Notes under the pieces: model-generated
The model's database searches: none
Told to the model about the DNA's origin: nothing
The model's input: only the letters and a program-made list of their open reading frames with translations
Source: Thermoplasmata archaeon
GTDB taxonomy: Archaea; Thermoplasmatota; Thermoplasmata; RBG-16-68-12; JAFNFQ01
DNA length: 64,000 nt
NCBI GenBank assembly: GCA_041489255.1
Contig: JBGPQV010000011.1
Coordinates: 3,528-67,527, forward strand
Direction of reading: 5' to 3'
In this document: piece by piece, positions 28,821 through 48,402 of the stretch
Layout of the letters: the number at the start of each line of letters is the position of its first letter
Numbering within the stretch: the stretch's first letter is position 1
Made by a program: the position numbers and the translations under genes

Positions 28821-29486
28821 TCAGATGTTGGTGAGCAGGCCGGGTTGTTTCACCGCTGGTCTCAGTCCTTTCGCCACATAGACGAGAAGGAAATTGTTGG
28901 CGTAGAACTTGGTGAAGATGCTCGACAGCATGTCATGCACTTTGCTGACGCCGATGGGGAGGCGCGTGGCGATCACGTTGCTCGCGAAGATGTGCTGAGC
29001 CCAACCATCCACCTGGAATCCCCTGAGCTGTTGCAGAGTGAAAAAGTGGATATGGGTGGGATCGTCGCGGCTCACAACCTTGTCTCCATTCGGCACTTGG
29101 ATGACCACGACCTTCCTGGCGACCCTGCAGAGATCTTCGATGCAGGCTCGCGTATCTGGTAGATGCTCCAGGACCTGCAGGCAGCTGACCATATCGTACG
29201 ATTTCTCTTTGAAAGGCATGTGAGGGAGAGCAGCGAGCACGCAATCGCTCGTATATCCCCTGACATCGCACCTCGCGGTTCTTAGGCCGATTGTCTTGGA
29301 GAAAACCGCGTAAGGTTGTGTGTTGGCCCCGACATCGAGGTGAGAATCGCAGCCGTACCAGAGGATGTTATCGAGCAGGATCTTCGCCACGAGGGTGTCG
29401 ATGTCCCGAGGCCCCCACCCTTGCATCCAGCGCGGCAGCGTGACTAGTTTGGCGGTCGATGCTCGCGCTTCCGCGGTTCCGTTCAA
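28821..29486 (-). CDS. Class I SAM-dependent methyltransferase
   Basis: Has motif I HLDVGANTQPY and motif II YDMVSCLQVLEHLPD. Confidence 0.65.
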   Translation of the reverse strand: MNGTAEARASTAKLVTLPRWMQGWGPRDIDTLVAKILLDNILWYGCDSHLDVGANTQPYAVFSKTIGLRTARCDVRGYTSDCVLAALPHMPFKEKSYDMVSCLQVLEHLPDTRACIEDLCRVARKVVVIQVPNGDKVVSRDDPTHIHFFTLQQLRGFQVDGWAQHIFASNVIATRLPIGVSKVHDMLSSIFTKFYANNFLLVYVAKGLRPAVKQPGLLTNI

Positions 29487-29597
29487 GGCGGTTCCCTAGA
29501 CGAGGATGTACGGTATTAGTAGGTATCGCAGGCGGACACACCATGGCATCGCCGACTGGGAAAACGTTCATTAGTGAGGGGACAGCTTCCGGCCTCG

Positions 29598-30578
29598 ATG
29601 ACGAAGACCGCTTTCGTAACCGGCATCACAGGACAGGACGGATCATATCTGGCTGAGCTTCTCCTGAAGAAGGGTTACATCGTCTATGGGATGATCAGGC
29701 GCCTAAGCTCTCCCAACACGCGGAACATCGCGCATATCATGGACCAGGTCGACCTAGTTGACGGTGATATGACGGACCAGTCTTCCCTGATCACAGCACT
29801 GATGGAGTCCCAGCCTGACGAGATATACAATCTGGCGGCTCAGTCTTTCGTGGGCACCTCCTTCAGACAACCCGTACTCACCGCGGATGTGAACGGCCTC
29901 GGCGTGGTCAGGTTGCTCGACGCGGTCAGATCGACCGTTCCCGACGCCAAGGTGTACCAAGCATCGACATCGGAACTCTTCGGTAAGGCGACGGAGATAC
30001 CTCAGAGCGAGACGACACCTTTCCATCCACGCAGCCCATATGGAGTCGCCAAGGTCTTCGCCTACTGGGCCTGCGTGAACTACCGCGAGAGCTACGGGAT
30101 GCATGTCTCCAACGGCATCCTCTTCAACCACGAATCGCCGAGGCGGGGGATGGAGTTCGTCACGAGAAGGATAACCTGCGGAGTGGCGAGAATCCACAAC
30201 GGTCTCTCGAAGCACTTGACCCTGGGAAACCTTAACGCCAAGAGGGACTGGGGCTATGCCCCGGAATACGTGGAGGCCATGTGGAAGATGATGCAGCAGA
30301 AAGGAGCAGACGACTGCGTCATCGCGACCGGAGAGACGTATTCGGTGAAGGAGTTCATGGCGCTGGCTTTCAAGGAAGTCGGCATCAACAACTACAGGAA
30401 GTACGTGAGGATTGACGAGAAGCTGAAGAGGCCCGCAGACGTGCACACCCTTTGCGGCAACCCCGCGAAAGCCAAGAAGGTGCTCGGCTGGAAGGCGAAG
30501 ACGAAGGTGCCTGAACTCGTGAAGATCATGGTAGAGGCTGACCTGGAGAGAGTGAAGGAAGAAAGGCACCACCTCTAA
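29598..30578 (+). CDS. gmd: GDP-mannose 4,6-dehydratase
   Basis: Starts at MTKTAFVTGITGQDGSYLAELLLKKGY and has the catalytic motif YGVAKVFAYW and NHESPRRG, the Gmd hallmarks. Confidence 0.85.
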   Translation: MTKTAFVTGITGQDGSYLAELLLKKGYIVYGMIRRLSSPNTRNIAHIMDQVDLVDGDMTDQSSLITALMESQPDEIYNLAAQSFVGTSFRQPVLTADVNGLGVVRLLDAVRSTVPDAKVYQASTSELFGKATEIPQSETTPFHPRSPYGVAKVFAYWACVNYRESYGMHVSNGILFNHESPRRGMEFVTRRITCGVARIHNGLSKHLTLGNLNAKRDWGYAPEYVEAMWKMMQQKGADDCVIATGETYSVKEFMALAFKEVGINNYRKYVRIDEKLKRPADVHTLCGNPAKAKKVLGWKAKTKVPELVKIMVEADLERVKEERHHL

Positions 30579-30593
30579 AGTTGCGAGAGAACG

Positions 30594-31046
30594 TCAGCTC
30601 GCTATCCAGGCTTCGATCCTCTCCACGTCCTCTTTCAATCCCTTCTGGGTGGCCAGCGATTTGTCAATCCATTTCTCCATGAAGTCTTTCTCTTCTTGTA
30701 TGCTCGGATCGGCCCGGGCGAGTTGTCTCACTATCGCGATGTTCCCTCGCCGCCACGATACGATGTCCTTCGCCATCAGCCGCTCCTTCGAATAGGGATT
30801 GCGCTCCACCGCCACGTCGGACTGCTCGACCCAGAGTTTGAGGACGATGTCATAGATGAGCCCCATGAGCAGGAATACTCCGATGACGATCAGGAAGAGT
30901 ATCATCGTCCCGAGGAAATAGTCGCCTTGCCTCACGATTCCGAGGCTTACAAAGTGCTGGTGGAAGTAGTTCGGGTAGAAGACGCCGGCCAATGTCAGCC
31001 CCAGAAGAAGAGGCCGATTAGCGTCTGGCTCTGCTGTATCCGCCAC
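30594..31046 (-). CDS. Small two-TM membrane protein (paralog A). The N-terminus is frame-shifted relative to paralog B.
   Basis: About 45% identical to the 46049..46543 product (LTLAGVFY.NYF...DVAVERNPYS.ER...FMEKWI.KSLA). The upstream TTG/ATG at 31075/31057 encodes LVKKGFMVQLWRIQQSQTLIGLFFWG, which matches the B N-terminus but is in another frame and then stops. This implies a 1-nt deletion near 30990-31000. Confidence 0.55.
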   Translation of the reverse strand: MADTAEPDANRPLLLGLTLAGVFYPNYFHQHFVSLGIVRQGDYFLGTMILFLIVIGVFLLMGLIYDIVLKLWVEQSDVAVERNPYSKERLMAKDIVSWRRGNIAIVRQLARADPSIQEEKDFMEKWIDKSLATQKGLKEDVERIEAWIAS

Positions 31047-31112
31047 AGCTGCACCATGAATCCTTTCTTCACCAATTCGGCCACCTTGGGCTCGCTTTGA
31101 ACTGAGTCGATA

Positions 31113-31919
31113 TTAGTATGTGTCGCCCGCGAGATATCCGCCGTTTCGGCCGACCGTTGGCTTCACAACATTCTCAATGACACCGATGACCAATGCATTC
31201 GCTCTTCGACGTTGGTAATCATAAGGCACATCCCTAACATCCTCCCAGCCAGCTTCCTCCCAACGATTGCCAGTCTGCATCCTCTTCATGAAAAGCAACT
31301 TAGCGAATCTCAAAGCGCCGTCACGTATGTATCCATCTAGAGCGGGATTCAGCCCCAGAGGCATGGTCACGAGGATTCTCCCGCCAGGCGCCAATAGACT
31401 CACGAGGTTCTCGAAACCTCTCAGTACCTTCTCGGGCTCGCGGGGTTTCTCCTCCCAGCCAACATGTTCCATCGTTGATATGCTGACGATGAGGTCGTAC
31501 CTTTTCGGCGTCTGGAAGTCGACCACGTCGCGATTGACGACGCCGTCTGCGATTTCATACTTATCAACAACATCATGAGGAAAGGAGAAGTAATTTGGCA
31601 GAACGTTTCCGATTTCAAGTGTCGTCTTCCCAAGGCTGTCCCTGACCGCCGCCCAAATGACGGGGACTTCGACAGCCCTCTCGTTCTTCCATGTCTTGCC
31701 GTAGATGTGGTAGAAGTAGTGGTATGTTTTTCCGTCGAGACGAAAACTGTCCCCAGATCTGAATAATCTGTGGTAGCGATGGCCTATGTGGCCATCGAGA
31801 CGGAAGGTCACTTCTTTGATGACAGAGCGGATGACATGGAGGACTCCTTTCTCGCGGAGGGATGTTCTCAAACCCGGCAAGAGCCCCTGAAACCTCTCGC
31901 GGCTATGCTTCATGCTCAT
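31113..31919 (-). CDS. Methyltransferase-fold protein (degenerate motif I)
   Basis: Has motif II YDLIVSISTMEHV and motif III LAPGGRILVT. Motif I is degenerate (TLEIGNVLPNY). It lies inside a glycosylation operon. Confidence 0.45.
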   Translation of the reverse strand: MSMKHSRERFQGLLPGLRTSLREKGVLHVIRSVIKEVTFRLDGHIGHRYHRLFRSGDSFRLDGKTYHYFYHIYGKTWKNERAVEVPVIWAAVRDSLGKTTLEIGNVLPNYFSFPHDVVDKYEIADGVVNRDVVDFQTPKRYDLIVSISTMEHVGWEEKPREPEKVLRGFENLVSLLAPGGRILVTMPLGLNPALDGYIRDGALRFAKLLFMKRMQTGNRWEEAGWEDVRDVPYDYQRRRANALVIGVIENVVKPTVGRNGGYLAGDTY

Positions 31920-31976
31920 GTCTCAGCCTGAATGAGAGCTCGTTGGAAATAGCTTCCCGTTTCCTGGTGGGGAGGC

Positions 31977-33017
31977 TCATTTGTCGATTGCCCGCTCATA
32001 GGACGCAATGTACTGAGACGCGATCTTGTCCATGTTAGCAGTCTTCTCGACGAACTCATACGCTCGCACGCCCATCTCTCTGGTCGCCTGCGGGTCATGC
32101 ATGCCCTCCTGTATGCAGCTCCATATCTCTTCGGGACTCTGGGCGAGCCATCCGGTGATCCTGTTCTGGATGACATCTGGGATGTTGCCGAGCGGAGGTG
32201 CGATGACGGGTTTCTTGAAGGCTATGGGGAAGTAGATCGAACCCGAGGTCGTGATGTCCCTATAGGGCTGCACCACTACGTTGCACGCCTTGAACCAGTA
32301 CTGCAAATCAGCGTCTGAGATGAAGCCCAAGTGCGATATGAGGTCGGTTCGATGATTCGCCGCTTCACGGATTGCCGCCCCAAGTTCAGGTTCCCTGCAT
32401 TCGCCAAAGATGCAGAATCTGACGCTCCGAGCGGTGTCCATCGATAGAAGCTTCAGGAAGTCCTCCGTCCCCTTATAAGGGTGGGTCGGAGCATAGTGGC
32501 CCACGACGAACTCCTCTTCCCCGATTCCTAGGCGAGTCCTAGCTTCCTTCTCTGAGATTGTGTCCTCGAAGGCCCCGTTGAAATTCATGCAAGGTATGAC
32601 AACATCGTCTGCCTGCCAATTCTCAGGCAACCCCTTGGCGGCGAAAGCCCTCTTCGCGTCTGAAATGGATCTCTGGCTGTGCCAGACAGCGACACTCGTC
32701 CTGTCGAGATAGAGATGTGTGACCGAGAGGTCATCTTTGAACACAGGGTCATGGGGGGTGATGTTGTGCACCGTCCAGACCTTGGGAATCCGTTTTCGGA
32801 AGAACAGCTTGGCCATCGTCAGGGAATCGAAGACGTTCCAGTGGAGATGACAGACATCGTTGTCGCCAAGCGTCTTCACCCAGAACCTGATGTAGTTCCT
32901 CGGCCAGCGCAGGTACGGCATCGGCGCTTCATTCACTTCAACGCCATGGGCCCTGAGTGCAGCGTTCAGCCTCATCACATAGCCATGTCTTGTGCTGGGC
33001 ACGCAGAGCACTCTCAT
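31977..33017 (-). CDS. Glycosyltransferase family 4 (GT-B fold)
   Basis: The C-terminal GT1/GT4 domain pattern is present (...FGECREPELG...ISDADLQYWFKACNVVVQPY...), as is the E-x7-E-like region. Confidence 0.7.
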   Translation of the reverse strand: MRVLCVPSTRHGYVMRLNAALRAHGVEVNEAPMPYLRWPRNYIRFWVKTLGDNDVCHLHWNVFDSLTMAKLFFRKRIPKVWTVHNITPHDPVFKDDLSVTHLYLDRTSVAVWHSQRSISDAKRAFAAKGLPENWQADDVVIPCMNFNGAFEDTISEKEARTRLGIGEEEFVVGHYAPTHPYKGTEDFLKLLSMDTARSVRFCIFGECREPELGAAIREAANHRTDLISHLGFISDADLQYWFKACNVVVQPYRDITTSGSIYFPIAFKKPVIAPPLGNIPDVIQNRITGWLAQSPEEIWSCIQEGMHDPQATREMGVRAYEFVEKTANMDKIASQYIASYERAIDK

Positions 33018-33020
33018 GCA

Positions 33021-33890
33021 CTAGCCTTCTCGGACGAAAAACAGATTCGTGTATCTCTTGTTCTCCTGAGTGCATCTCTCCATGATTCCCGGGATGTCTG
33101 CTGGCCGTATCGTCCTCCTTCTTTCGTCGATTTCATGGAGAACGAAGCCCTGCTTCACGAAGAGGTCAATGTATTCCGCAGGCTCCGTGCCGAACTGCCT
33201 GAGTCCGAACGGCCAAAACTCCGACACGATCTTAAGGCGCCTATTCTTCTTGAGGAGATCGGGCATTCCTTGGACCGCTCCACCTTCGGCCCCTTGAATG
33301 TCCATCTTCATGAAGTCCACGCGCCCCCCGAAGTCTGCAAGGAAATCATCCAATCTAACGGCCTCTATCTCAATCGAAGTTCGACCGTCGTTAGGATCGT
33401 AAATCCTGTGATCTCCCTTGTTATCCTCCGAGAGGAAGAGTCGAATTCGCTCGGTTCTGTTGGCGACCGCCTTTTGCACGAGAATGACGTTCTGATAACC
33501 GTTCATCTCCACGTTATTCTTCAAGAGACCGAAGTTGGTCGGGTCTGGTTCGAAGGCGATGACCTTGCCATCTGGGCCAACCAATCTCGCTGCAATCAGC
33601 GTGTGATATCCTATGTTCGCTCCGATGTCAAAGACAACATCGCCTTTCTTTATCTCCCCGTTGAGGAGGCCCGTTTCGACGGGTTCGTATATTCCTCTAA
33701 TCGACAAAGCCATGCCATCATTCTGGTCGAGGAGCATCTTGTGTCCCTGGACTTCTGCGATTGCAGTCGGGTCCTTGAGACGAGACACTAGGTAGTGATA
33801 CGCAATCTTGACGGGATAAAGGTCCCCGACGCCTGGAGCGAGAAAAAGAGGCTCCATAATTCTAAAGGCTGGCAGTATCAGCTTCCGCAT
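33021..33890 (-). CDS. FkbM-family methyltransferase
   Basis: Has DIGANIGYHTLIAARLVGPDGKVIAFEPDP and a FkbM-like C-terminal region. The start is MRKLILPAF at 33890. Confidence 0.75.
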   Translation of the reverse strand: MRKLILPAFRIMEPLFLAPGVGDLYPVKIAYHYLVSRLKDPTAIAEVQGHKMLLDQNDGMALSIRGIYEPVETGLLNGEIKKGDVVFDIGANIGYHTLIAARLVGPDGKVIAFEPDPTNFGLLKNNVEMNGYQNVILVQKAVANRTERIRLFLSEDNKGDHRIYDPNDGRTSIEIEAVRLDDFLADFGGRVDFMKMDIQGAEGGAVQGMPDLLKKNRRLKIVSEFWPFGLRQFGTEPAEYIDLFVKQGFVLHEIDERRRTIRPADIPGIMERCTQENKRYTNLFFVREG

Positions 33891-34152: not shown

Positions 34153-34161
34153 GATAAATAG
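34153..34161 (+). promoter_or_regulatory. TATA-like box GATAAATAG about 38 nt upstream of the 34195 start, with a GGAGA Shine-Dalgarno in the leader
   Basis: The same GATAAATAG box recurs at the same spacing upstream of the 37647 paralog, and a CTTATATC box does so upstream of the 41311 paralog. Confidence 0.4.
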
Positions 34162-34194: not shown

Positions 34195-37100
34195 ATGCAT
34201 GGGATTCGCTGTGCCGCTTTTCCTGTCTGTCTGTTGCTAGTGCTGACTGCTGCCGCTTCATTGATCGACTCGGAAGTCGCGGGCGAGCCCGTTCTCGGTG
34301 TCATTGATTTGCACTATTCGTCGCCCGCACTGGAGATCACCCCGGCACGCGAACCGCTTGAAGGTGACTTCGTCCGTGTCACCGCCCACGTAGAGCTTGA
34401 TGGCACGCAGAACTGGACGAAGCGTGGCGTTGTGCTAGATAAGGGGAATCCGGGGGATCCAGACGACACTCAGGTGTCAGCGCCATTCGTAATGTACACA
34501 GGTGGCGAGTATAAGATGTGGTATGTTGGCGACCCGGGTTCCTCCCCAACTTCATACATTATGTTCGCCAACTCAACCGACGGTGTCACATGGACGAAGC
34601 ACGGCACCGTTCTGAGCCCTTCTGGATTGCAGGAACAGGGCGTACACTACCCCGGCGTGATCTTGGATGGATCGACCTACAAGATGTGGTATGGCGGTTC
34701 AGACGGCACGTATTATAGGATTTTTTATGCAACCTCTCCCGACGGCCTTTCGTGGACGAGACAGGGGTTGGCTCTCGACCTCGGTCCACCCGGAGCCATG
34801 GATGACTCCTCCGTTTTTGCTCCGTTCGTCTTGAGAGAGGGTTCCACATATAAGATGTGGTATACCGGCGGCGACGGCAGCAACAACCGCGTGATGTACG
34901 TCGAGTCAAATGACGGCATCAATTGGGGAACCAGAGAACTGAATCTAGATCTCGGGACGCCTGGCTCGGAAGAAAGCGCACACGTGCAGTTTCCCCATAT
35001 ACTGGTGGAGGGAGGCACGTATCACCTGTGGTATGTTGGACAACTCGCCGCCAGAGACAGGATTTTCTATGCAACATCAGCTGATGGAAAGACGTGGACG
35101 CGGTTGGGGAAGGTCGTTGACCTCGGACCACCCGGTAGCACCGATGATGGACACTTGCTCATGCCGCGCATTCTCCATGAGTCAGGGAAGCCATATCAGA
35201 TGTGGTATGCAGGGAAGGGCACACTCCAGAATATACACCACGCCACGTTCGATTTACCGATCACTCTGCCCGTGTCGGCAAGCGTGGACTTCTATCTAGA
35301 CATGATTGGCCCAGGCACCAACATCGGATCGTCTGTTGTCCAAGTTGGCGCACTTGCACCGTCAAACGCCGACATGGTCTGGCTGGCCACGCCCGCCGGA
35401 GGTCATGTGATCTATGCCGTGATCGACGAAGCGAACTCTGTCGACGAGACCAATGAATCGAATAACGTCGCGTCTCTCGCGGTCAGGGTCGTGGCGAACA
35501 GCCCACCTGTGGCCGATGCGGGGAATGACCAGAGTGTGTTCCGGAACTCGATGGTTGTGCTGGACGGTTCAGCCACTTACGATCCCGAGGGCGACCCGAT
35601 CACTTACTTATGGATCCAGACCGCCGGGCTGCCGATGCCCATGTTCGGAAGCAACACTTCCACCCCATTGGTGGTCACCTACCTCTCTGGGTTCTACACA
35701 TTCCTCCTGACGGCATATGATGATCGTGGCGGGATTTCCACAGATATCACGAATGTGACGGTCACGAACCGGCCCCCCACCGCTGATGCAGGACCTGATA
35801 TTAGTGTCGCCAAGAGGACGCTCGTGATTCTTGACGGATCTGGTTCTTCAGACCCGGATTCCGACTTCCTTTCATACGATTGGGTGCAGACGGGTGGCTC
35901 TCCCGTGACTCTCCATGGCAGCAACACACCGAACCCCACTTTCATGCCTGCGACTGCCGGGCTCCGCACTTTCCGACTAACGGTAGATGACGGAGACCTC
36001 GGGGTCGCCAGTGATTCTGTCCAGGTCAATGTGACCAACCTAGAGCCAATCGCCAGCGCGGGATCGGATATGACCGTCAGGAAGAACACGCCCGTGACCC
36101 TGGACGGGACTGGCTCGAACGATCCTGATGGAGACATTCTCTCATATTTCTGGACCCAGACCGGTGGACCGGGTGTGACCTTGTCCCGCCCAAATTCGGA
36201 GACCGCCACATTTACACCATCTGTCGCCGCCATCTACACATTCAGCCTCTCGGTCAGCGATGGCAATGGCGAGACAGACTCCGATTCCGTCCAAGTCAAT
36301 GCCACTAACAGCGGTCCGGTGGCGAACGCGGGCATGGATTTCACGGCGAGGAAGCGCTCACCCACTATACTTGACGGCACGGGCTCATACGACCCGGATG
36401 GAGACGCCATCACGTTCCTCTGGACTCAGATGGGCGGTCCGCCAGTCATTCCAATGGGGATGGATACGGCCACGCCGACATTCACGCCATTGCGTGCAGG
36501 CCTCTATGAGTTCCGCCTCAATGTCACCGATGCCGACGGAGTGACCGGCTCCGACCAGGTTGGCGTAAGCGTCACGAATTCACTCCCAAGAGCGTATGCA
36601 GGACTGGATTTCACCGCCAAGAAGAAGACCATAGTGACCTTGGATGGAGGCGGGTCTTCCGATCCTGACTTGGAGGCGCTCACCTACGCCTGGTCGCAGA
36701 ATGGCGGCCTGAGTGTGATAATCGTGGACGCGGACAACGCCGTCGCGACATTCACCCCGCTTATGTCTGGCAATTATCTCTTTGAACTCACAGTGGCTGA
36801 CGGCGACGGGGGCATATCCGTGGACAGCGTCCAAGTGACCGTCATCAATGCCGACCCACTGGCGGAAGCAGGACCAGACCTGATTTGCGGGAAAGGCACT
36901 CTCGTGAGTCTCGATGGCACTTCCTCTTTTGACAGTGATGGCGACGTCCTTTCCTTTGTCTGGACTCAGACGAGTGGCCCGACCGTCTCTTTGGCGGGAA
37001 TGGACACCGACTCTCCCAGCTTCACGCCAGCGTCCGTGGGTACATACAAGTTCAGGTTGGCGGTGGATGACGGTGATGGCGGGACGGACACCGACACGGT

Positions 37101-37611: not shown

Positions 37612-37646
37612 GCCGGCCAGCAATGTTGATTCAGGGAGGTTGGGAT

Positions 37647-41310: not shown

Positions 41311-44300
41311 ATGTTCAAGGAAGGTCGGCGTCTGATATCTGTGTCATTCATTCTTGCCACGTTGCTAGTTTCAACTGTTGCTGTCACAGCAATCGAGCCA
41401 GAGCCGATAGTGAGCCTCGCTGACCTGCACTTCGCCGCCCCGGGTCTCGAACTGCTGCCCGCAGGGAGCCCGGTCGAGGGCGACACGGTACGGATCGTGG
41501 GTCACGTCCAAGCGAGCGGAACGCAGGCCTGGACGAAGGCGGGTGTGGTGCTGGACAGAGGTTCTCCTGGCGAACCCGACAGTCACGAGCTCGGCGCCCC
41601 TTCGGTGATCTACGATGGCGGCGAGCATAAGATGTGGTATGCAGGGACCACAGGCAGCATGACCGGGTCGATACTGTATGCTACTTCGCCCGATGGGGCG
41701 TCCTGGACGAAGCACGGAGCTGTGCTCGCCCCAGGTTCTTCTCCTGAAAACGTCAATGTCCACTATCCTTGCGTGATGAAAGATGGCGTGACGTACAAGA
41801 TGTGGTACAGCGGATTCGACGGCTCTCACTACAGGATATTCTACGCGACCTCGGCCGACGGGCTGACCTGGAGCCGTCAGGGACTCGTCCTCAACCTTGG
41901 GCCTCCTGGTTCCTACGACGACAATTTCGCGTACGGACCCTTCGTGCTCAAGGAAGGAAGCGCCTACAGAATGTGGTATTCTGGGAGTGACGGTGCCAAT
42001 GTCCGCCTCCTCTATGCCACATCTCCCGATGGACGGGGCTGGACGAAGCAGGGCGTCAACCTGAACCTCGGTCCTCCAGGCTCACTCGAGAACGTGCACG
42101 TCTCGCCGAGCTACATCCTCGTGGAGGGCGGCGGATACCACATGTGGTACCGGGGAAGCGATGGCACCAACGACAGGATATTCTACGCGACTTCATCTGA
42201 TGGTCTCTCTTGGAGGCGGCGGGGAGTGGTTGTCGATGTCGGGCCGCCCGGCAGCACCGACGCTGTTCACATTCTGCTCCAATCCGTCCTCCACCTGCCA
42301 GGCATGCCCTACCAGATTTGGTACACAGGCCGAGGTCAGTCCACCATGTACGATAGGATTCACTACGCCTACATGACGTCGGTGCCGATGCCCGTGTCCG
42401 CCGAGGTCGAGTTTTACCTGGACGCAATCTCGCCCGGGAACAGCATGGGAGTGACCATAGCTCAGATCGGGATACTGCACGACTCCACGGCTACGCTGAA
42501 CTGGATTGCGGGACCACCCGGCTGGCACACGATATACGCGGTCATAGATCCGCTCGGCGGTATTCCCGAGACGGACGAGGGCAACAACACCGCCAGCGTC
42601 GATGTCTTCGTCAGGGCGCCCTTGCCGGACTATATACCGGCACAGCCTCGGCCCGTGTCGCCAGTGAAGACCGGGCTGACCCTGCCGCTCCAGCTGTCTC
42701 TCCAGGTCGCGAACATCGGCGGCGTAAACGTGACAGCCGACGCCACACTCGCGATCTGCGACGAGTCAGGGACTCCATTCGCCTCCTTCACGATTCCGTC
42801 CTTGGACTCGGGCAAGGTCTCGGCGCGGTTCACCGCCGCGTGGACATCTCCCGCAGTCCCCGGGACTCATCTTGTGTCCGCGGACGTGGACTACTACGAC
42901 AACGTTGCCGAGTGGGACGAGACGAACAATGTGTACACGTGGACGATTGATGTGGTGGCTGGTCCGGTCACCTCGCTGTCCGTTGGAAGTCCAAGCCACG
43001 TCTCTCCCGCCTTGGTGATGTACGTCAAGTCCTCCACCCCCCTCGACCTCTCCGTCCTCGACCAGGGCGGGTCTGGCATCAACCACACATGGTACAGGAC
43101 AGACAATCTCACTTGGATAGACTACTCCGCTCCGTTCTTCCTCTCCGGGGAGGGAGACCACTATGTCGAGTGGTACTCCGAGGATAACGTCGGGAACGTC
43201 GAGAATGTCTCGCGGCGGGTGCTGAGGGTCGACGACACTCCTCCCGCCACGGCCCTCTCAATAGGCGAGCCCAAGTACACGCTCGGCGGGAACTTCGTCA
43301 CGTCCTTCACTCCTCTCGCGCTTCATGCCGACGACGGCGGCGTCATGCCCGTCGGGACCGACTACACGGAGTACAGGGTGGAAGGCGGGAACTGGAACAC
43401 GTACTCGTCGCCGCTCTTCCTGACGACAGAGGGAATTCACACACTGGAGTTCCACTCCTACGATCTGCTCGCCAACCCTGAGCCCGTCCACTCGATCCAG
43501 GTAGTCGTGGACGACACGCCGCCGACGACGATGGTCGGCGTGGGAGAGCCGGAGTACCAGGCGGCTGACCTCTACGTCACCTCGTCGACCGGCATCAACC
43601 TGACATCAACGGACGGCGGCGCCATCCCGGTCGGGCTCGGCAGGACAGAGTACCGGGTGGATGGTGGTGGGTGGTTCATCTACGCTCACGACATCACGCT
43701 CTCCGGAGCGGACGGCCCTCGCACGATCCAATACAGGTCCGTGGACCTGCTCGGGAACATCGAGATCGTCAGGAGCATTCGCGTCGTCCTGGACAATACG
43801 CCTCCGACAACGACAATCTCCCCTGCAGCCGGGCCGTTCGCAGCGGACATGTGGTTCAACCTCACCACCACGGATTCCGGCTGCGGCGTCGCGGCCATGG
43901 AGTACAAGATAGACTCAGAGCAGTGGAGATTCTATGAAGGCAATTTCACGGTGCAAACCGGACTCCATACGATCTGGTTCAAATCCACGGACAACCTTGG
44001 CAACAGGGAGACGCCGAAGAGCCTCGAGGTGGATATTGAGGCTGAACGCCCGCCGGACATCGCAGTGGGCACGAACTACAAGCCCATGGTCGCGACCGTG
44101 TTCACAGTCGCCCTCCTGGTTGCGGGATTCTGGTCATCGAGGGGGAGACCTTGGAAGAACCGAAAGGACAGGGTGGCAATGCTCCAAGCATTCTGTGCCT
44201 ATTCTCTGCCATTCGCGACGGCCGAGACCGTGACCGGGCTGCTGTCTCTGGCGACCGGGGTCCTCTCAATCCCACCCGTGCTCGGACTCGGAACCGCGGT

Positions 44301-44403
44301 GGACGTGAGCATCCTGTCGATTGGATTTGCCGTGGCCATGCTAAACGTGGCTGGTAGGAAGCAGAAGGGGCCTCCCCCGGGGTCGCAGGACAGCATTGGT
44401 TAG
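41311..44403 (+). CDS. Giant surface protein 3: signal peptide, the same beta-propeller-like module, CARDB-like domains, tandem Ig-like repeats, and a C-terminal multi-TM anchor
   Basis: The start is MFKEGRRLISVSFILATLLVSTVAVTA at 41311. It carries the same repeat module (EHKMWYAGTTG...RIFYATSADGLTWS...). CARDB-like segments are present (IPETDEGNNTASVDVFV and DNVAEWDETNNVYTWTIDV). About 6 repeats of roughly 80 aa follow (Y.[TS]S.T...L...D.GG....G...TEYRV[DE]GG.W..Y..P..L..EG.HT.E..S.D.L.N.E.V.S..V.VD.TPP). The C-terminus has 2-3 TM helices. Confidence 0.7.
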   Translation: MFKEGRRLISVSFILATLLVSTVAVTAIEPEPIVSLADLHFAAPGLELLPAGSPVEGDTVRIVGHVQASGTQAWTKAGVVLDRGSPGEPDSHELGAPSVIYDGGEHKMWYAGTTGSMTGSILYATSPDGASWTKHGAVLAPGSSPENVNVHYPCVMKDGVTYKMWYSGFDGSHYRIFYATSADGLTWSRQGLVLNLGPPGSYDDNFAYGPFVLKEGSAYRMWYSGSDGANVRLLYATSPDGRGWTKQGVNLNLGPPGSLENVHVSPSYILVEGGGYHMWYRGSDGTNDRIFYATSSDGLSWRRRGVVVDVGPPGSTDAVHILLQSVLHLPGMPYQIWYTGRGQSTMYDRIHYAYMTSVPMPVSAEVEFYLDAISPGNSMGVTIAQIGILHDSTATLNWIAGPPGWHTIYAVIDPLGGIPETDEGNNTASVDVFVRAPLPDYIPAQPRPVSPVKTGLTLPLQLSLQVANIGGVNVTADATLAICDESGTPFASFTIPSLDSGKVSARFTAAWTSPAVPGTHLVSADVDYYDNVAEWDETNNVYTWTIDVVAGPVTSLSVGSPSHVSPALVMYVKSSTPLDLSVLDQGGSGINHTWYRTDNLTWIDYSAPFFLSGEGDHYVEWYSEDNVGNVENVSRRVLRVDDTPPATALSIGEPKYTLGGNFVTSFTPLALHADDGGVMPVGTDYTEYRVEGGNWNTYSSPLFLTTEGIHTLEFHSYDLLANPEPVHSIQVVVDDTPPTTMVGVGEPEYQAADLYVTSSTGINLTSTDGGAIPVGLGRTEYRVDGGGWFIYAHDITLSGADGPRTIQYRSVDLLGNIEIVRSIRVVLDNTPPTTTISPAAGPFAADMWFNLTTTDSGCGVAAMEYKIDSEQWRFYEGNFTVQTGLHTIWFKSTDNLGNRETPKSLEVDIEAERPPDIAVGTNYKPMVATVFTVALLVAGFWSSRGRPWKNRKDRVAMLQAFCAYSLPFATAETVTGLLSLATGVLSIPPVLGLGTAVDVSILSIGFAVAMLNVAGRKQKGPPPGSQDSIG

Positions 44404-44761
44404 ATGTTGGATGCGACTGCCGGACGATAGCTGGAAACATACCCGGGACGCTGTCCTATCAGCCAGCGCCTGACGTTGCGGCTAGGGGGCAAGAGGAACA
44501 GGATTCATCTGAAGAACGAAGCACCGGCAGGTCGACCGCGCCTGCGAAGCTTGACCGGGCTGCCGGTGTGCACCACATGAGGGGTTTCGAGTTGACGCGG
44601 ACTTCCCGCGATGCAGCAATCGCCTTGGACGATTCTTCAACACGATCCGTGACTGAATCAGCGGGTATCTGGATGGACTGCTGGTCTCGCGACGGTAACC
44701 CCGGGGGAGGCGATGACAGAAACACCTGAGAGTCAAGAGGAGGAAAAAGCATGAAGAGAAA

Positions 44762-44877
44762 TTCCCCGTCACCGAAAAACCGCCTCGACTCCGCCTCGTT
44801 CAGCAGGTGCTGCCCCAGGAGTCCGCTCGCCCCGATGATGAGAAACTCGGTCATGCGCGATGTCGCCCCGGGATCAG
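44762..44877 (-). pseudogene. 5' fragment (about 115 bp) of an rmlD-like NAD-dependent epimerase/reductase gene, a paralogous remnant of 46646..47521
   Basis: The DNA is nearly identical to 47410-47525. It encodes MTEFLIIGASGLLGQHLLNEAESRR against MTEVLIIGASGLLGQHLLNEAEARR, with a frameshift and loss of similarity beyond. It lies directly next to the IS. Confidence 0.6.
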
Positions 44878-44954
44878 ACCGACCTTCATTCTCCTGATGG
44901 TTGTCGGGTGCACGACAACCCACTTCCTTGATTGTTCCCTTCCCGCAGGATCGC

Positions 44955-45987
44955 TGTACAATCCTGTAATTAGTTTCCTGGAGGCGAAGGGAGTCATGCT
45001 GTCCGCTCCTTTAGTCTTTTCAGGTAGGCTTTCCTATCCTTAGGACGCAGCTTCCTCACGAACGCGTGCGCAGGCGTCTCGGCGTGCTCGAAGTCCAGCG
45101 ACTCGTGGGGCTTCACCTCGTTGTACCATCTCATGATTTCGTCCAGGCTACGGAACTCCTTCTTCCCGTCCGGCCACCTGGCGCGCAGCTTCGACTTGAT
45201 AGTCCCGAAGAGTCTCTCCACCTTCCCGCCGGTCTGAGGATGCTTGACCCTGGAGCGGATGTGCTGCACCTCTATCCCCCGCTCTTCCTCCAGCTCCCTC
45301 AGCTTCGCGTCGAAGTAGCCCTCGGCTTCATACTGAATCTTGGTGAATTGAGATCCGTGGTCTGTCAGGATCTGGCGGGGGAAGCCGTACCTCTCTCCCG
45401 CCGTCAGGAACGTCTGCCAGGCCATCTGTGCAGACGCACTCCTCGTCCTGGCGTAGCCCATGATCAGGCGGGAGGCGTCGTCCAGGATGACGAGCAGCCA
45501 GTCCCCCGGCCTCAGCAGGGTGTAGTCCATCTGCCATAGGGAGTTGGAGAAACGTCTCTCGAACCTGACCCACGACCTCCTCCTCTGCCTGGCGGGGGGG
45601 TCCTTCACGCGACCCGCCTCCTTGAGCACCACATAAAGGCGGTTGTGCGGTATGTGGCGGTTGTACGCCTCCATGATCTTGCGCTCCAGGGCGACTGGGT
45701 GGAGGTGAAACTCCCTCTCGCACTCGAGTATGAAGGCGATCTCCTCATCTGGCAGCTCCCTCCTCGGTCGACCGGCTTCCTTGAGCACCGGGATCTCTCT
45801 GCCGTATCCCGACCTCCTCCACAGCTCCCTCGCCCACTGAGGAGTGATGTTCCACTTCTTGGCGATCGAGTACACAGACTTGACCCCGCCTTCCATTGCG
45901 TCTATGATTCGTGCAACCTGCCCCCGCGTCAGCTTAGGCATGGGGGGTATTGCGGTCTCTCCAAGAAAGTGATTATGGGATTTGACA
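44955..45987 (-). mobile_element. IS481-family-like insertion sequence, 1033 bp, carrying a DDE (rve integrase-core) transposase
   Basis: The termini are 5'-TGT...ACA-3'. The imperfect terminal inverted repeats match at about 22 of 30 positions (TGTACAATCCTGTAATTAG... against the reverse complement of ...GTGATTATGGGATTTGACA). The element is flanked by the 16-bp direct repeat CTTCCCGCAGGATCGC (44939..44954 and 45988..46003), which is a candidate target-site duplication. Confidence 0.7.
44994..45941 (-). CDS. DDE transposase (integrase core domain, IS481-like)
   Basis: The 316-aa protein starts at MPKLTRGQVARII with an N-terminal HTH. The DDE triad lies in WQMDYT, ILTDHGSQF and KVERLFGTIK. The ORF-track N-terminal extension is spurious. 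Confidence 0.75.
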   Translation of the reverse strand: MPKLTRGQVARIIDAMEGGVKSVYSIAKKWNITPQWARELWRRSGYGREIPVLKEAGRPRRELPDEEIAFILECEREFHLHPVALERKIMEAYNRHIPHNRLYVVLKEAGRVKDPPARQRRRSWVRFERRFSNSLWQMDYTLLRPGDWLLVILDDASRLIMGYARTRSASAQMAWQTFLTAGERYGFPRQILTDHGSQFTKIQYEAEGYFDAKLRELEEERGIEVQHIRSRVKHPQTGGKVERLFGTIKSKLRARWPDGKKEFRSLDEIMRWYNEVKPHESLDFEHAETPAHAFVRKLRPKDRKAYLKRLKERTA

Positions 45988-46048
45988 CTTCCCGCAGGAT
46001 CGCCGCGCTCCGATCTGCTTGAGGCGCTATCGCAGTATGACGTTCCTG

Positions 46049-46543
46049 CTAGTCCATGACCCACTTTTCCAGGCCCTCGACGGTCTTCCTGAGGTCAGGC
46101 CGTTCCGCAAGGGACTTGGCGATCCACTTCTCCATGAACTCTATGTCTTTCTGGATTGCGCTGTCCGTCTTTGCGAGTTCCTTCATGATTGACACGCTGG
46201 TGCGCTTCCACTGCACGATTTCCTTCGGCTGCATCCGTTCAACCGAGTACGGGTTGCGCTCGACCGCAACGTCGGTCTGCTCTCTCCAGAGCTTCAGGTA
46301 TCTGTCGTAGATGAACCCCATGAGCAGTATCGCGGCAACAATGATGAAGAACAGATATATCGTTCCGATGAGATTGTTCGTCTGGTTGTCCACTTCTGAA
46401 ACAAGTCCCAATCTGATGAAGAAGGCCCTGAAATAGTTGTAGTAGAAGACTCCGGCGAGAGTCAGCGCCCAGAACACCAGGCTTATCAGGACTTGACTCT
46501 GCTGTATCCGCCATATCTGGACCATCAGGTATTTCTTGACCAA
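46049..46543 (-). CDS. Small two-TM membrane protein (paralog B)
   Basis: The 164-aa protein MVKKYLMVQIWRIQQSQVLISLVFWALTLAGVFYYNYF... has two N-terminal TM helices and a conserved C-terminal soluble region (DVAVERNPYSVER...FMEKWIAKSLA). It is a paralog of 30594..31046. Confidence 0.6.
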   Translation of the reverse strand: MVKKYLMVQIWRIQQSQVLISLVFWALTLAGVFYYNYFRAFFIRLGLVSEVDNQTNNLIGTIYLFFIIVAAILLMGFIYDRYLKLWREQTDVAVERNPYSVERMQPKEIVQWKRTSVSIMKELAKTDSAIQKDIEFMEKWIAKSLAERPDLRKTVEGLEKWVMD

Positions 46544-46645
46544 GTAGACCGCCTCGCCCCCGCGAAGATGAAGCGGGATATTAGTATGTGTCGTCCGCGA
46601 GCGGATATGAGTCGGCGCGAATTAAGCGTCTGCATGCTCCATTGA

Positions 46646-47521
46646 CTAGTGTCTGATCCTCATTTCCTCCAGACAGCTCTCGAAGCTGTTCATTGAGACG
46701 CCAAGCTTGGCCTCGATCTTCGTCGTTGATAAACATAGTTTGCGCGGGAGCAAGGCACCGAGCCCCGTATCCCCAAGGGTTGTTGGTTCCAGCCTTTCTT
46801 CGTCCAAGCCGAAGGCCTCGCAGACTCGCTTCCCCATTTCAAATCTGTTCAGTCGAGAACTGGTCGCGATGTGGAATATCCCTGATTCATCATTCCGCAG
46901 CAGATCGAATACATGTTCCGCGACCTTGGGCGCATACGACGGGGTTGCCCACTGATCAACCGGCAGGTCCACCTCCTGACCGCACCTGATTTTGTGCACG
47001 ATTGATGTGACCTCGTTCTCCCTCGGCCTCAGCCTGTTCCATCCGAAGTCCTCGCACGTCCTGATTGCAAGCGAGTCGGGGAGAGTCTCCATGACGCTGT
47101 TCTCCCCTTCTAGCCTGGTCCTTCCAAGGATATTAACCGGGTTCGCCTTTGAATCCTCTGCGTAAGGACCTGATTCGCAATTGAACACATGGACCGTGGA
47201 GAATAACGCCATCTTCGCGCCAATCGACCTGCAGACCTTCGCGATAACAAGAGGCGCCTCGGAGTTCACCTGCATCGCTCTCATGGGGTTGGATTCGCAC
47301 TCCGCTATCGAGGTCATCGCGGCGGGCAAGATGACGATGTCTGGTCTCCTTTCTGAAATCATGGTCTTCACTGCTTCGAAATCAGTCAAATCCAGTCTCT
47401 CCAGTCCCGCCACTTCCTCCGAGTAATATGTCCCTGTCACCGAATACCGCCTCGCCTCCGCCTCGTTCAGAAGGTGCTGCCCCAGGAGCCCACTCGCCCC
47501 GATGATGAGAACCTCGGTCAT
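46646..47521 (-). CDS. NAD-dependent epimerase/dehydratase family protein (dTDP-4-dehydrorhamnose reductase RmlD-like)
   Basis: Starts at MTEVLIIGASGLLGQHLL (GxxGxxG). It has an RmlD-like length of 292 aa and a YxxxK-containing region. The ORF-track extension to 47635 is spurious. Confidence 0.65.
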   Translation of the reverse strand: MTEVLIIGASGLLGQHLLNEAEARRYSVTGTYYSEEVAGLERLDLTDFEAVKTMISERRPDIVILPAAMTSIAECESNPMRAMQVNSEAPLVIAKVCRSIGAKMALFSTVHVFNCESGPYAEDSKANPVNILGRTRLEGENSVMETLPDSLAIRTCEDFGWNRLRPRENEVTSIVHKIRCGQEVDLPVDQWATPSYAPKVAEHVFDLLRNDESGIFHIATSSRLNRFEMGKRVCEAFGLDEERLEPTTLGDTGLGALLPRKLCLSTTKIEAKLGVSMNSFESCLEEMRIRH

Positions 47522-48164
47522 GCGACGACGGACCGGCGGCGGGAGGTCAAAACTTTTGTCCCGCCAGAATCCGAGATGATTCTCACCGATAACACGATGC
47601 ATCGCACGACGCCGGTTCGGCGGGTCCTCTGCCACTCCTTTTTACTTTCCGTTCTGATGGCGGGAGGCCGTATCCTTCCTTCCCTCCCTTAAAGTACGTC
47701 TGTGCGGCGGCTTTGGCGGTCATTTATGCTCCGAATCTGATCATCTGACGACCGATTTCGACTCTCTCACGACCGTCGCCGGACAGGTGCTAGCCTGCGG
47801 AAGCGAGATTCCTGTTCCGGAGGTCGGAGGCGGCCGTCAGGGCCTTTCTGACAATCTTCCATCGGACTCTTTCCGGCTCTCCGAGACCCGGTTCCGGCTC
47901 GCGGAGAACCGACGCAGACCGCCAGCGACCCGGTTCTGCCGCCGGGGGACGGCGACAGTTGACCGGGACTCACCGCACGCCGTCACCGGCGCGGTTCCGG
48001 CTCTCCGAGAGAGAGATACGGCGTGCGGGAGGTTACTTTCGAGGGCATGAACATCGGCTGTTCGCGGGGGAAGCTCAAGCATAGTGCCCCGCATGCCGCA
48101 ATCGTCGGGGAATCACCCGGCCTCGTTCGACTACTTCGTCACAGATTCCTTCCACGAAACGCCC

Positions 48165-48342
48165 CACTCCCACAGCCCCCTCGACCCACCGAGGAGCGAT
48201 GTCCCTCTTCCCGGCAATCGGATGAGCTGACTCAATCCCGCCTCCCTCACGTCTATCATCCATGCGCCTTGCCCCCCCCCCTCAGCCCGGGCGGAGGGTG
48301 GGAATCGCGGTTTCTCCAAGAAGGTGATCACTGGATTTGACA
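48165..48342 (-). mobile_element. Truncated second copy (right-end remnant, about 180 bp) of the same IS
   Basis: The segment ...CGGTTTCTCCAAGAAGGTGATCACTGGATTTGACA ends at the same ...GGATTTGACA boundary as the intact copy, with roughly 30 of 35 positions identical. Upstream of it is a degenerate transposase N-terminal coding fragment (MDDRREGGGIESAHPIAGKRDIAPRW against IDAMEGGVKSVYSIAKKWNITPQW). There is no flanking CTTCCCGCAGGATCGC repeat. Confidence 0.55.
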
Positions 48343-48402
48343 ATGATGATTTGGAACACAAGGATTATCTAGACCGTGGCACATATATGTCATATGACAA
48401 TT

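Follow-up and report, generated by a model that had tools for sequence, protein, structure and literature searches.

Genomic islands that encode exposed cell structures, a hallmark of which is under-recruitment in metagenomes, have been described in several prokaryotic groups. Replacement flexible genomic islands are known from aquatic prokaryotes (Lopez-Perez, Martin-Cuadrado and Rodriguez-Valera 2014, PMC4033161). Among archaea, the cell-wall island GI1 of Haloquadratum walsbyi encodes carbohydrate-binding surface proteins and combines purifying selection with recombination and transposable elements (Martin-Cuadrado et al. 2015, PMC4535781).

The locus described here belongs to a Thermoplasmata archaeon and was analysed within a window of 64,000 nucleotides. 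A variable cell-surface block of 19.5 kb (28,821-48,343) lies between housekeeping genes, as a preliminary description of this DNA had noted: PurM, RlmE and LipA on the left, and PCMT, an ArsB-like permease, ArgRS and eRF1 on the right. Nearly all elements in that description were located where it placed them, and its overall picture, an accessory, variable region for surface and glycosylation functions that bears mobile-element scars and is set between housekeeping genes, is borne out by gene content, composition and comparison with relatives. The block comprises two modules, a sugar module and three tandem paralogous surface proteins. Judging from its sequence and that of its relatives, it is probably a replacement-type flexible genomic island for the cell envelope, a fixed slot whose alleles and cassettes are exchanged by homologous recombination. 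Because the identical sequence occurs in one NCBI MAG, one JGI metagenome contig and two Logan contigs, the island is not an assembly artefact. The Logan contigs break at 45959, inside an intact insertion sequence (IS), and at 48047, inside a 710-nt insertion.

A fixed slot with variable content

The comparison covers about ten related loci, several of which end at contig ends, and the full island is known from this genome only. The slot is bordered by PurM-RlmE-TPR on one side and p97/p98-PCMT-ArsB on the other. At this site, a block of sugar genes and propeller proteins is present in all relatives examined whose flank identity is about 70% or higher, while relatives at 55-61% identity have no block there. 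Cassettes, gene order and alleles vary. For example, the sister species (L007/L008) match the left junction and order, with an extra methyltransferase and with the FkbM gene swapped for a different one, in L007 an unrelated Methyltransf_11 gene. In L048 and L049 the order is PCMT-p98-p97-RmlDlike-smTM-GT4-MT-GMD-...-large proteins, with a non-homologous GT4 (no ortholog of the GT4 described here was detectable in L048), and in L051 it is PurM-RlmE-TPR-MT-GMD-173aa-GT4-smTM-268aa-large proteins. TPR adjoins GMD in L053 and smTM, a small membrane protein, in L058. In the distant L052, which has a different sugar chemistry, another chromosomal site carries smTM and a large propeller protein together with a UDP-glucose dehydrogenase, an epimerase, an acetyltransferase and two GT4 genes; L059 shows the same linkage of sugar genes to smTM and propeller-PKD proteins. 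The island is not a strain-specific foreign insert: its position is conserved, although gene order varies and composition shifts.

Within the island, synonymous sites have diverged 5-40 times as far as in the flanks; dN/dS is 0.05-0.13, and the mosaic breakpoints are sharp. Against the sister species, dS is 0.04-0.135 in the flanks, compared with 0.63 for MT11, 0.82 for GMD, 1.69 for large protein 1, 3.8 for GT4 and saturation for MT23. The island alleles are old and under purifying selection. The first smTM copy (smTM-A) has a dS of 0.04 although its neighbours exceed 0.8, and L060 is 100% identical to the window across 32.0-34.3 kb, falling to 76% in GMD. The island is a recombination mosaic. 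In the slot, each lineage would maintain its own assortment of functional, old alleles and cassettes that serve exposed structures; these would be exchanged by homologous recombination, with IS activity leaving scars. By analogy with known islands of this kind, the diversity is probably driven by virus and other surface recognition.

Compositional profiling against the flanks, suggested in the preliminary description, reveals a real shift: GC is 57.5% in the island and 60.2% in the flanks, GC3 is 0.72 and 0.80, and the tetranucleotide distance to the flanks is 23.0 ± 3.0 inside against 15.1 ± 2.7 outside (Mann-Whitney p 1.5e-4). Part of this shift reflects protein type, namely the amino-acid bias of surface proteins, because a surface-protein gene that lies beyond the island, at 51-54 kb, is deviant too.

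The two small genes p97 and p98 (48403-48696 and 48725-49021, plus strand) are probably what had been taken for a toxin-antitoxin-like pair within the island. They lie just past the end originally given for it and have no match in Pfam, NCBIfam, PHROGs or PDB. In L048 and L049 they adjoin PCMT, at flank-like divergence (dS 0.26, dN/dS 0.16-0.24), and thus belong to the conserved flank, not to the island cargo.

Sugar and methylation genes

The first variable gene past the conserved TPR/zinc-ribbon gene encodes the class I SAM-dependent methyltransferase MT11 (28821-29486, minus strand; Pfam Methyltransf_11 at 31 bits, above the gathering score of 21.2), which also has a weak MftM-like match; it is found in L007 and L051 and missing from L053. 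Next to it lies GMD, a GDP-mannose 4,6-dehydratase (29574-30578, plus strand; TIGR01472 at 426 bits, above the cutoff of 415; PF16363, E 4e-128; PDB 1rpn, E 4e-119). Of the two SAM methyltransferases proposed earlier, MT11 stands; the other, the MT23-like putative methyltransferase (31113-31919, minus strand), has a sub-threshold match only (Methyltransf_23, E 1.4e-4, 22.1 bits against a gathering score of 27) and no PDB match, even with a six-sequence family profile. It is the most divergent gene of the sugar module, with 46-50% amino-acid identity to its counterparts in relatives. The GT4-family (GT-B) glycosyltransferase (31977-33017, minus strand; Glyco_trans_1_4 and Glycos_transf_1 above gathering score) has an amino-acid identity of 73% in the sister and 99% in L060. 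An FkbM-family methyltransferase (33021-33890, minus strand; 289 aa from an internal ATG; PF05050 at 73.6 bits, TIGR01444 at 109.8 bits) follows. At the far end of the island lies an RmlD-like NAD(P)H-dependent sugar-nucleotide 4-reductase (46646-47521, minus strand; PF04321, E 1e-51; PDB 2ggs, E 2e-30; TIGR01214 at 175.6 bits, below the cutoff of 224), 92% identical in amino acids to the L048 copy, which directly adjoins p97.

By family membership, GMD produces GDP-4-keto-6-deoxymannose, which the RmlD-like enzyme would probably reduce to a GDP-6-deoxyhexose; GT4 would transfer a sugar, and three to four methyltransferases would methylate the product. The reductase could alternatively belong to a dTDP-rhamnose pathway with the remaining genes elsewhere. 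The proposed theme of 6-deoxyhexose synthesis and O-methylation is plausible as GDP-6-deoxyhexose plus methylation, with the reservation that the reductase falls below the RmlD equivalog cutoff. GDP-D-rhamnose and other GDP-6-deoxyhexose pathways consist of GMD and a 4-reductase such as Rmd or GTS. The island resembles them in its bona fide GMD, SDR-type 4-reductase candidate, GT4 and several methyltransferases, which are co-clustered in L048 and L049. It differs in that its reductase is of the RmlD (PF04321) rather than the Rmd/GMER type, and in that gmd and the reductase gene are 16 kb apart in this genome.

No oligosaccharyltransferase, flippase or lipid-carrier priming glycosyltransferase was found within the island or the whole window, so the island could do no more than add sugars to a glycan begun elsewhere, or modify those present. 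Most likely, the sugar module adds a lineage-specific cap to such an envelope glycan (N-glycan or lipoglycan).

Large surface proteins

The three surface proteins are tandem paralogs, as described earlier, although "giant" is a generous term at 1,030-1,187 aa; over their N-terminal ~430 aa, pairwise identity is 48-53%. All three genes lie on the plus strand, and all three products start with a signal peptide followed by a propeller; the further parts are given in their order along the protein. Large surface protein 1 (34195-37560) has a five-bladed propeller of GH130/GH43 fold, a CARDB domain, seven K319L-like PKD domains and a C-terminal TM anchor. In large surface protein 2 (37623-41186) the propeller, CARDB and PKD domains are followed by about five 108-aa tandem Ig-like repeats, encoded by 324-nt DNA repeats, and the protein has no C-terminal TM segment. 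Large surface protein 3 (41311-44403, 1030 aa) has two CARDB domains, Big-like repeats and C-terminal hydrophobic segments. The pseudo-five-fold-symmetric propeller head would thus sit distally on a CARDB/PKD stalk, with a predicted C-terminal TM anchor in two of the three proteins.

Each of the five blades repeats the conserved positions, among them one Asp, and no blade-specific conserved residues were found. Among homologs of the propeller, some have it fused to a MarR-type wHTH domain and others bear T9SS sorting tags. The MarR-type fusion places the propeller where a sensor domain would be expected and therefore suggests that it binds a ligand. Divergence within the large protein is fastest in the head, which is 48% identical to the L048 ortholog compared with 65% for the stalk. 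With its GH130/GH43 fold, the head appears to be carbohydrate-directed, a feature absent from the preliminary description, and it is more likely a binding module than an enzyme.

Sequons (N-X-S/T), which report on N-glycosylation sites only, were counted against the expectation from amino-acid composition. The three large proteins have 8-10 each (0.76-0.89 per 100 aa), with 5.8-8.9 expected. By comparison, a conserved surface protein just outside the island (51177-54746) has 40 where 14.6 are expected, and another at 8519-10303 has 14 where 6.4 are expected.

Small membrane proteins

Two paralogous genes on the minus strand encode small two-TM membrane proteins, smTM-A (30594-31076) and smTM-B (46049-46543). 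The latter is intact, while smTM-A is disrupted near its N-terminus, where a G-run has lost 1 nt (G4 in this genome and L007, G5 in L060); the intact version is P0138/L060. The family is lineage-restricted, about 160 aa long, and marked by the motif WREQ(T/S)DVAVERNPYS. Only 27 homologs were found, none with a Pfam domain. The predicted model of smTM-B is all-helical (pLDDT 80), and a structural neighbour search with it returned none.

AT-rich, TATA-like boxes lie upstream of both genes on the minus strand (31109-31133 for smTM-A and 46577-46601 for smTM-B) and are 96% identical repeats of each other; the former overlaps the end of the neighbouring MT23-like gene at its stop codon. In all relatives, an equivalent AT-rich box precedes the smTM start by ~35-40 nt, and the boxes are putative smTM promoters. 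This 160-aa protein, with a promoter apparently its own, always accompanies the sugar genes and may act as a membrane adaptor.

Insertion sequences and gene fragments

One intact IS, one truncated IS and one gene fragment had been reported, and all three are present. The intact IS481-like element (44955-45987, minus strand; 1,033 bp) encodes a 315-aa transposase with an rve domain (44994-45941; NF033577 IS481, E 2e-44) and has imperfect ~31-bp terminal inverted repeats beginning TGT. It is bounded by a 16-bp direct target-site duplication, CTTCCCGCAGGATCGC (44939-44954 and 45988-46003). L048 and L049 have the empty site, with a single copy of the 16-bp target; this, with the duplication, makes the IS a simple later insertion. 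Like the IS481 family, it combines a single ~315-aa DDE (rve) transposase, a length of ~1 kb, TGT-starting inverted repeats and a direct target duplication. Unlike that family, it scores below the NCBIfam cutoff (152 bits against 224). At 16 bp, the target duplication reaches or exceeds the upper limit of the range for IS481 elements.

A 710-nt insertion (47634-48343, minus strand), seen as an alignment gap against L048, is absent from L048 and L049. The ORFs of this insertion have no Pfam match. The truncated IS makes up its rightmost 234 nt (48109-48342) and is a decayed end of the same IS family that retains a terminal repeat and the 5' end of the transposase gene (alignment score 157 against 33 ± 4.4 for shuffles). 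The gene fragment comprises codons 1-32 of an rmlD-like gene (44759-44857, minus strand), with 93% nucleotide identity over 82 nt to 47443-47524 (tblastn E 9e-13). It occupies the spot where a GT4 gene starts in L048 and L049, and upstream of it the homology to L048 extends as far as the start codon.

Alternative explanations

A classical horizontally acquired island or integrative element, recently inserted from a foreign donor, would account for the lower GC and GC3, the deviant tetranucleotide signature and the transposase genes. It is nevertheless highly improbable: no integrase is encoded, the sole tRNA lies at a distance of 17 kb, the island is not bounded by direct repeats, and the IS arrived later with its own target duplication. 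The homologous modules that fill the same slot in all relatives down to ~70% identity largely refute it. A different proposal is that the sugar genes serve to make a dedicated glycan of methylated 6-deoxyhexose, with the three adjacent large proteins as its specific substrates. Sugar genes, smTM and propeller-PKD proteins are indeed linked in every relative, including L052 and L059, and in L060 a single inherited block, 100% identical, spans the GT4-FkbM cassette and the beginning of large protein 1. Selection shared by exposed structures accounts for this linkage just as well, however. The large proteins have sequon numbers near expectation, unlike the two other surface proteins, and the island and window lack the transfer, flipping and priming enzymes. 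The earlier claim that the glycan decorates these proteins thus finds no support in sequon density, and we regard a dedicated glycan as unlikely.

It is likewise doubtful that the large proteins serve in feeding, as polysaccharide-degrading enzymes displayed at the surface (GH130/GH43-like hydrolases or phosphorylases), with the sugar genes as unrelated neighbours. Pfam GH130 matches are weak and about threshold (26.5-33.4 bits against a gathering score of 26), homologs carry the JGI label "predicted GH43/DUF377 family glycosyl hydrolase", and the organism looks heterotrophic (acyl-CoA ligase, PDH E1, peptide-binding SBP). Known enzymes of the fold, comprising the GH130 mannoside phosphorylases and hydrolases and the GH43/32/68/117 five-bladed propeller clan, share only 11-18% sequence identity with the island propellers. 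In contrast to those enzymes, the island blades are near-identical 57-aa repeats whose conservation tracks the repeat, with no identifiable catalytic residues. The domain sits at the tip of PKD stalks; in homologs it is fused to wHTH regulators, a fusion that suggests ligand binding. GH130 phosphorylases are normally cytoplasmic, at odds with surface display, and a head that is the most divergent part between orthologs would be unusual for a conserved catalytic domain.

Comparison with known islands

The replacement-type envelope island favoured here shares several features with the islands of aquatic prokaryotes (PMC4033161). In both, the same locus is occupied in all related genomes by different genes or alleles on a theme of exposed structures, mostly synonymous substitutions increase abruptly at and within the island, exchange is by homologous recombination, and GC is below that of the flanks. 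Unlike those islands, which were compared among strains of one cultured species, the present one was compared across MAGs and metagenome contigs of relatives ranging from species to family level, and its host is an uncultured Thermoplasmata lineage.

GI1 of H. walsbyi (PMC4535781) is similar in being archaeal, in joining surface (glyco)proteins, many with carbohydrate-binding domains, to envelope biosynthesis genes, and in its purifying selection, its repeat-rich surface proteins and its diversity from homologous recombination and transposable elements. In contrast to GI1, the island yielded no identifiable S-layer gene, the surface proteins are of the GH130/GH43-fold propeller-CARDB-PKD type and are joined by a lineage-specific 160-aa membrane protein, and the sugar chemistry would be that of GDP-6-deoxyhexose plus methylation. 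In summary, the block is not a new kind of system but a good instance of a well-known kind of island.

Synteny of the island in related genomes

In genome comparison, the cell-surface and sugar-gene island (28821-48343) occupies a slot that is conserved across a genus- or family-level clade, with its content shuffled from locus to locus. A metagenome scan with the TPR protein of the left flank identified at least five loci. The left junction (PurM-RlmE-TPR) is present in L007, L051, L053 and L058, and the right junction (p97/p98-PCMT-ArsB) in L048 and L049. Among relatives, island proteins are 46-89% identical, compared with 87-99% for flank proteins.

For example, in the sister species (JAFNFQ01; contigs L007 and L008) the left junction is shared and the flanks are 92-96% identical to the window at the nucleotide level. 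The genes follow in the order seen here, namely the methyltransferase MT11, GMD, the small membrane protein smTM-A, an MT23-like gene, GT4 and large protein 1, and identity past GMD/smTM-A is only about 70%. An additional MT23-like paralog separates MT11 from GMD in L007 (5865-6842, minus strand), and an unrelated Methyltransf_11 gene replaces FkbM (1602-2288, minus strand); the set of methyltransferases varies more than any other part of the sugar module. In the JGI metagenome contigs L048 and L049, where right-flank proteins are 87-99% identical, p97 is directly followed by the RmlD-like gene, smTM, a non-homologous GT4, a methyltransferase, GMD, an MT23-like gene, a further methyltransferase and large propeller/PKD proteins. 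A more distant MAG (L051, flanks about 70% identical) has the order PurM-RlmE-TPR, methyltransferase, GMD, a 173-aa protein, GT4, smTM, MT23-like and large proteins, while TPR adjoins GMD in L053 and smTM in L058. Relatives at 55-61% identity keep PurM-RlmE or RlmE-TPR, followed by a helicase and other genes. The block had been proposed as a possibly strain-specific accessory island; gene content and order are indeed variable, as expected of accessory DNA, but the position is conserved in relatives and is not specific to this strain.

Gene content of the sugar module

Pfam and NCBIfam scans recovered most of the sugar genes listed in the preliminary description. These include a class I SAM methyltransferase (MT11, 28821-29486), a GT4 glycosyltransferase (31977-33017) and an FkbM methyltransferase (33021-33890), all on the minus strand. 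GMD (29574-30578, plus strand) passes the equivalog cutoff for GDP-mannose 4,6-dehydratase (TIGR01472, 426 bits against 415, residues 11-326) and matches PDB 1rpn at E 4e-119. The RmlD-like reductase (46646-47521, minus strand) reaches the fold-level family PF04321 (E 1e-51) and misses the RmlD equivalog cutoff (TIGR01214, 175.6 bits against 224); no rmlABC partner genes were found in ORF scans of the window. The second proposed SAM methyltransferase, the MT23-like gene (31113-31919), has sub-threshold matches only, and a PDB search with a family profile built for the purpose returned no relative.

The three tandem surface-protein paralogs, the two paralogous small membrane proteins, the intact and truncated IS and the gene fragment are also all present, the mobile-element and fragment limits now being exact. 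The toxin-antitoxin-like pair was not upheld. Its genes, p97 and p98 (48403-49021, plus strand), encode 97 and 98 aa, lie 28 nt apart and match no toxin or antitoxin family, nor any other entry, in Pfam, NCBIfam, PHROGs or the PDB; their likeness to such a pair is confined to the two-small-gene layout. In relatives they always stand next to PCMT and diverge at the level of the flank, to which they belong. By eye, the C-terminus of p98 may resemble RelE.

A lineage-restricted small membrane protein

The two small membrane-protein paralogs, smTM-A (30594-31046) and smTM-B (46049-46543), belong to a small, lineage-restricted family of 27 homologs of about 160 aa, always found among sugar genes. 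Its members are marked by a strictly conserved WREQxDVAVERNPYS motif and combine two TM helices with a C-terminal domain of three helices. The predicted structure is all-helical; the family has no Pfam entry, and the model has no meaningful structural neighbour.

A 25-nt repeat (31109-31133 and 46577-46601) is explained by the AT-rich, TATA-like box that smTM carries with it, about 35-40 nt upstream of its start codon. A recombination site was considered for this repeat and rejected, since every relative has such a box at the same spacing from the start codon, as would befit a promoter.

smTM-A is frameshifted here and in the sister species, one G having been lost from a run of five near the gene start (window 31040-31050; L007 ~4330), and is intact in L060 (~3345), a 95%-identical metagenome contig. 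This G4/G5 difference may reflect either pseudogenisation or a polymorphism that turns the gene on and off.

Propeller heads of the large secreted proteins

Three tandem genes (34195-37560, 37623-41186 and 41311-44403) encode large secreted proteins, each with a predicted signal peptide. The first ~430 residues are 48-53% identical among the three, and the C-terminal halves differ. Hydrophobic C-terminal anchors are found in large proteins 1 and 3, and protein 2 is without one. PKD/CARDB domains are predicted as well, and surface exposure is a prediction from these features and from the sugar-nucleotide and glycosyltransferase genes nearby. In large protein 2, positions 39285-41152 hold about five tandem 108-aa (324-nt) repeats of 63-85% DNA identity, each bearing a conserved 'DPGSDDL(T/K)F.W' motif. 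These repeats are a possible substrate for repeat-number variation.

The N-terminal ~330 residues consist of five 57-aa repeats with the consensus W-T-K...G..G..D...V..P.V...G..YKMWY.G.DG...RI.YATS.DG., and this head shows the five-bladed beta-propeller fold of GH130 and the GH43 clan. When 54 sequences were aligned, every invariant or near-invariant column, including one Asp per blade, fell within the five-fold repeat, and no blade-specific conserved residue was found. We infer that the head is carbohydrate-directed and more likely to bind than to catalyse. Orthologs share 48% identity in the head and 65% in the PKD stalk.

The propeller family is large, with more than 1,400 homologs at E below 1e-10. 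Its contexts are PKD stalks (Thermoplasmata), T9SS sorting domains (bacteria) and fusion to MarR-type wHTH domains. The last context, a fusion to winged-helix DNA-binding domains, was seen in five Thermoplasmata homologs (P0016, P0024, P0025, P0065 and P0086) and suggests that the propeller can act as the ligand-sensing module of one-component regulators. The homolog search returned no protein longer than ~760 aa and no sister-species ortholog; the island of the sister species is visible as far as L007 extends. A literature search on DUF377 in archaea found nothing relevant.

Mobile-element scars

The intact IS (44955-45987; 1,033 bp) ends in imperfect terminal inverted repeats of ~31 bp and encodes an IS481-like transposase of 315 aa, whose best NCBIfam match is IS481 at 152 bits, below the cutoff of 224. 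It is bordered by a 16-bp direct repeat, and L048 and L049 carry the empty site. In-silico removal of the IS and one repeat copy gives a gapless alignment to both.

Another end belonging to this IS family, now decayed, was recognised at 48109-48342 (alignment score 157, against 33+-4.4 for shuffles), within a 710-nt insertion (47634-48343) that is missing from L048 and L049. A search for a second IS in the window by transposase homology gave only a marginal 19-aa match; the 234-nt remnant came to light by DNA-level alignment. No Pfam match was obtained for ORFs in two non-coding stretches, of 741 nt and 370 nt. The rmlD-like gene fragment comprises the first 32 codons (44759-44857) and sits exactly where the GT4 gene starts in L048. 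The roughly 355 nt (44404-44758) that separate the large protein 3 stop codon from this fragment lack coding signal and resemble no fetched locus.

Is the island glycan attached to its neighbours?

The preliminary description had proposed a dedicated methylated-deoxysugar glycan decorating the three large proteins. The sequence gives this claim no support: each large protein has 8-10 N-X-S/T sequons, about as many as expected from composition (5.8-8.9), and the window encodes no oligosaccharyltransferase. An archaeal N-glycosylation (agl) cluster can be set aside, since its marker genes (the oligosaccharyltransferase AglB, a flippase and a dolichol-phosphate priming glycosyltransferase) are missing from the island and window ORFs scanned. 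Given the lack of these genes in the window and the near-expected sequon counts, the most plausible role of the sugar module is to add or alter a terminal sugar of an envelope glycan assembled elsewhere, the carriers of which need not be the neighbouring large proteins.

Two other secreted proteins of the window are richer in sequons. One, a conserved surface protein of 1,189 aa encoded outside the island (51177-54746, plus strand), has 40 of them, or 3.4 per 100 aa, where 14.6 are expected, which makes it a stronger candidate than the island proteins for the principal N-glycosylated protein of the envelope. It combines a signal peptide and a C-terminal TM segment with CarboxypepD_reg, PKD and CARDB domains, and shares 91% identity with its L048 counterpart. 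In the left flank, a 594-aa BNR_4/Ig-like secreted protein (8519-10303, plus strand) has 14 sequons against 6.4 expected. A further secreted protein of 789 aa (11393-13762, plus strand), also in the left flank, starts with a signal peptide and matches no Pfam domain.

The linkage itself is robust: L052 and L059 also keep sugar genes, smTM and propeller together, at another chromosomal position and with another sugar chemistry, so a functional connection between the sugar module and the propeller proteins may still exist. One possibility is that the pseudo-symmetric heads are multivalent lectins reading the capped, lineage-specific glycan that the sugar module beside them produces, a matched locus of glycan and reader. 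This would explain the recurrent linkage, the faster divergence of head than stalk and the joint inheritance of the cassettes, yet we regard it as improbable. If true, such a glycan and lectin could serve self or kin adhesion, or the non-covalent tethering of the anchor-less paralog to the glycocalyx of its own cell, and the 160-aa membrane protein would be a new part that the glycan pathway requires.

Origin and evolutionary dynamics of the island

Compositional profiling bears out the anticipated shift between island and flanks, with a GC content of 57.5% against 60.2% outside, a mean GC3 of 0.72 against 0.80, and a tetranucleotide distance to the flanks of 23.0+-3.0 inside the island against 15.1+-2.7 outside. 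Part of this signal reflects protein type, because a surface-protein gene at 51-54 kb, beyond the island, is deviant too; so are the sugar genes of 29-34 kb. Flank genes include eRF1, a PCI-domain protein and ThiN-type thiamine genes, and the nearest relatives are labelled Thermoplasmata, Thermoplasmatota or 'Methanobacteriota archaeon'; both assign the sequence to an uncultured lineage of Thermoplasmata.

Divergence from the sister species rises sharply at the island. While dS is 0.04-0.135 in flank genes, it reaches 0.63 in MT11, 0.82 in GMD, 1.69 in large protein 1 and 3.8 in GT4, and is saturated in the MT23-like gene; mid-island, smTM-A forms a low-dS patch (0.04). dN/dS is 0.05-0.13 throughout. 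L060 is 100% identical to the window over 32.0-34.3 kb, with a stepwise decay to 76% within GMD. These patterns point to island alleles that are old, functional and reassorted by homologous recombination.

Several other origins were weighed. An assembly chimera is ruled out by independent assemblies, namely contig JBGPBK010000010.1 of MAG GCA_041481165.1 and a 99-kb contig of JGI metagenome 3300052989, each 100% identical to the window over the 20.7 kb covered, and two Logan short-read contigs, likewise 100% identical over the stretches covered. A recent foreign insertion, to which a compositional shift might be ascribed, is contradicted by the filled slot in relatives and by the pattern of dS and dN/dS. 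The filled slot also speaks against a classical integrative island, as do the lack of an integrase and of bounding direct repeats and the position of the only tRNA, at 11206. Positive selection as the cause of the divergence was rejected, given dN/dS of 0.05-0.13 with saturated dS.

The Logan contigs (L003 and L004) end at 45959, in the intact IS, and at 48047, in the insertion holding the IS remnant. These breaks are consistent with a multi-copy IS or population heterogeneity at those points.

Comparison with known flexible genomic islands

In summary, the feature appears to be a replacement-type flexible envelope island, a well-known kind. The description as an accessory, variable envelope island stands; a strain-specific insert does not, and a dedicated glycan for the neighbouring proteins is unlikely. 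This provides a clear, recombination-resolved example in an uncultured Thermoplasmata lineage that is not a marine model, and adds a case to the pattern already described for Haloquadratum, marine bacteria and ammonia-oxidising archaea. For users of MAGs, it highlights that such islands break assemblies and vary between otherwise nearly identical populations. It also flags two uncharacterised parts: nearly perfectly five-fold-symmetric secreted propellers of the GH130/GH43 fold and a lineage-restricted 160-aa membrane protein.

Replacement flexible genomic islands have been defined as a class (PMC4033161), and the dS jump and mosaicism seen here match that definition, as do a fixed position, a shared theme with differing genes and alleles, and a recombination signature. 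Another close parallel is the cell-wall island of Haloquadratum walsbyi, where surface glycoproteins with carbohydrate-binding domains occur together with purifying selection, recombination and transposable elements (PMC4535781).
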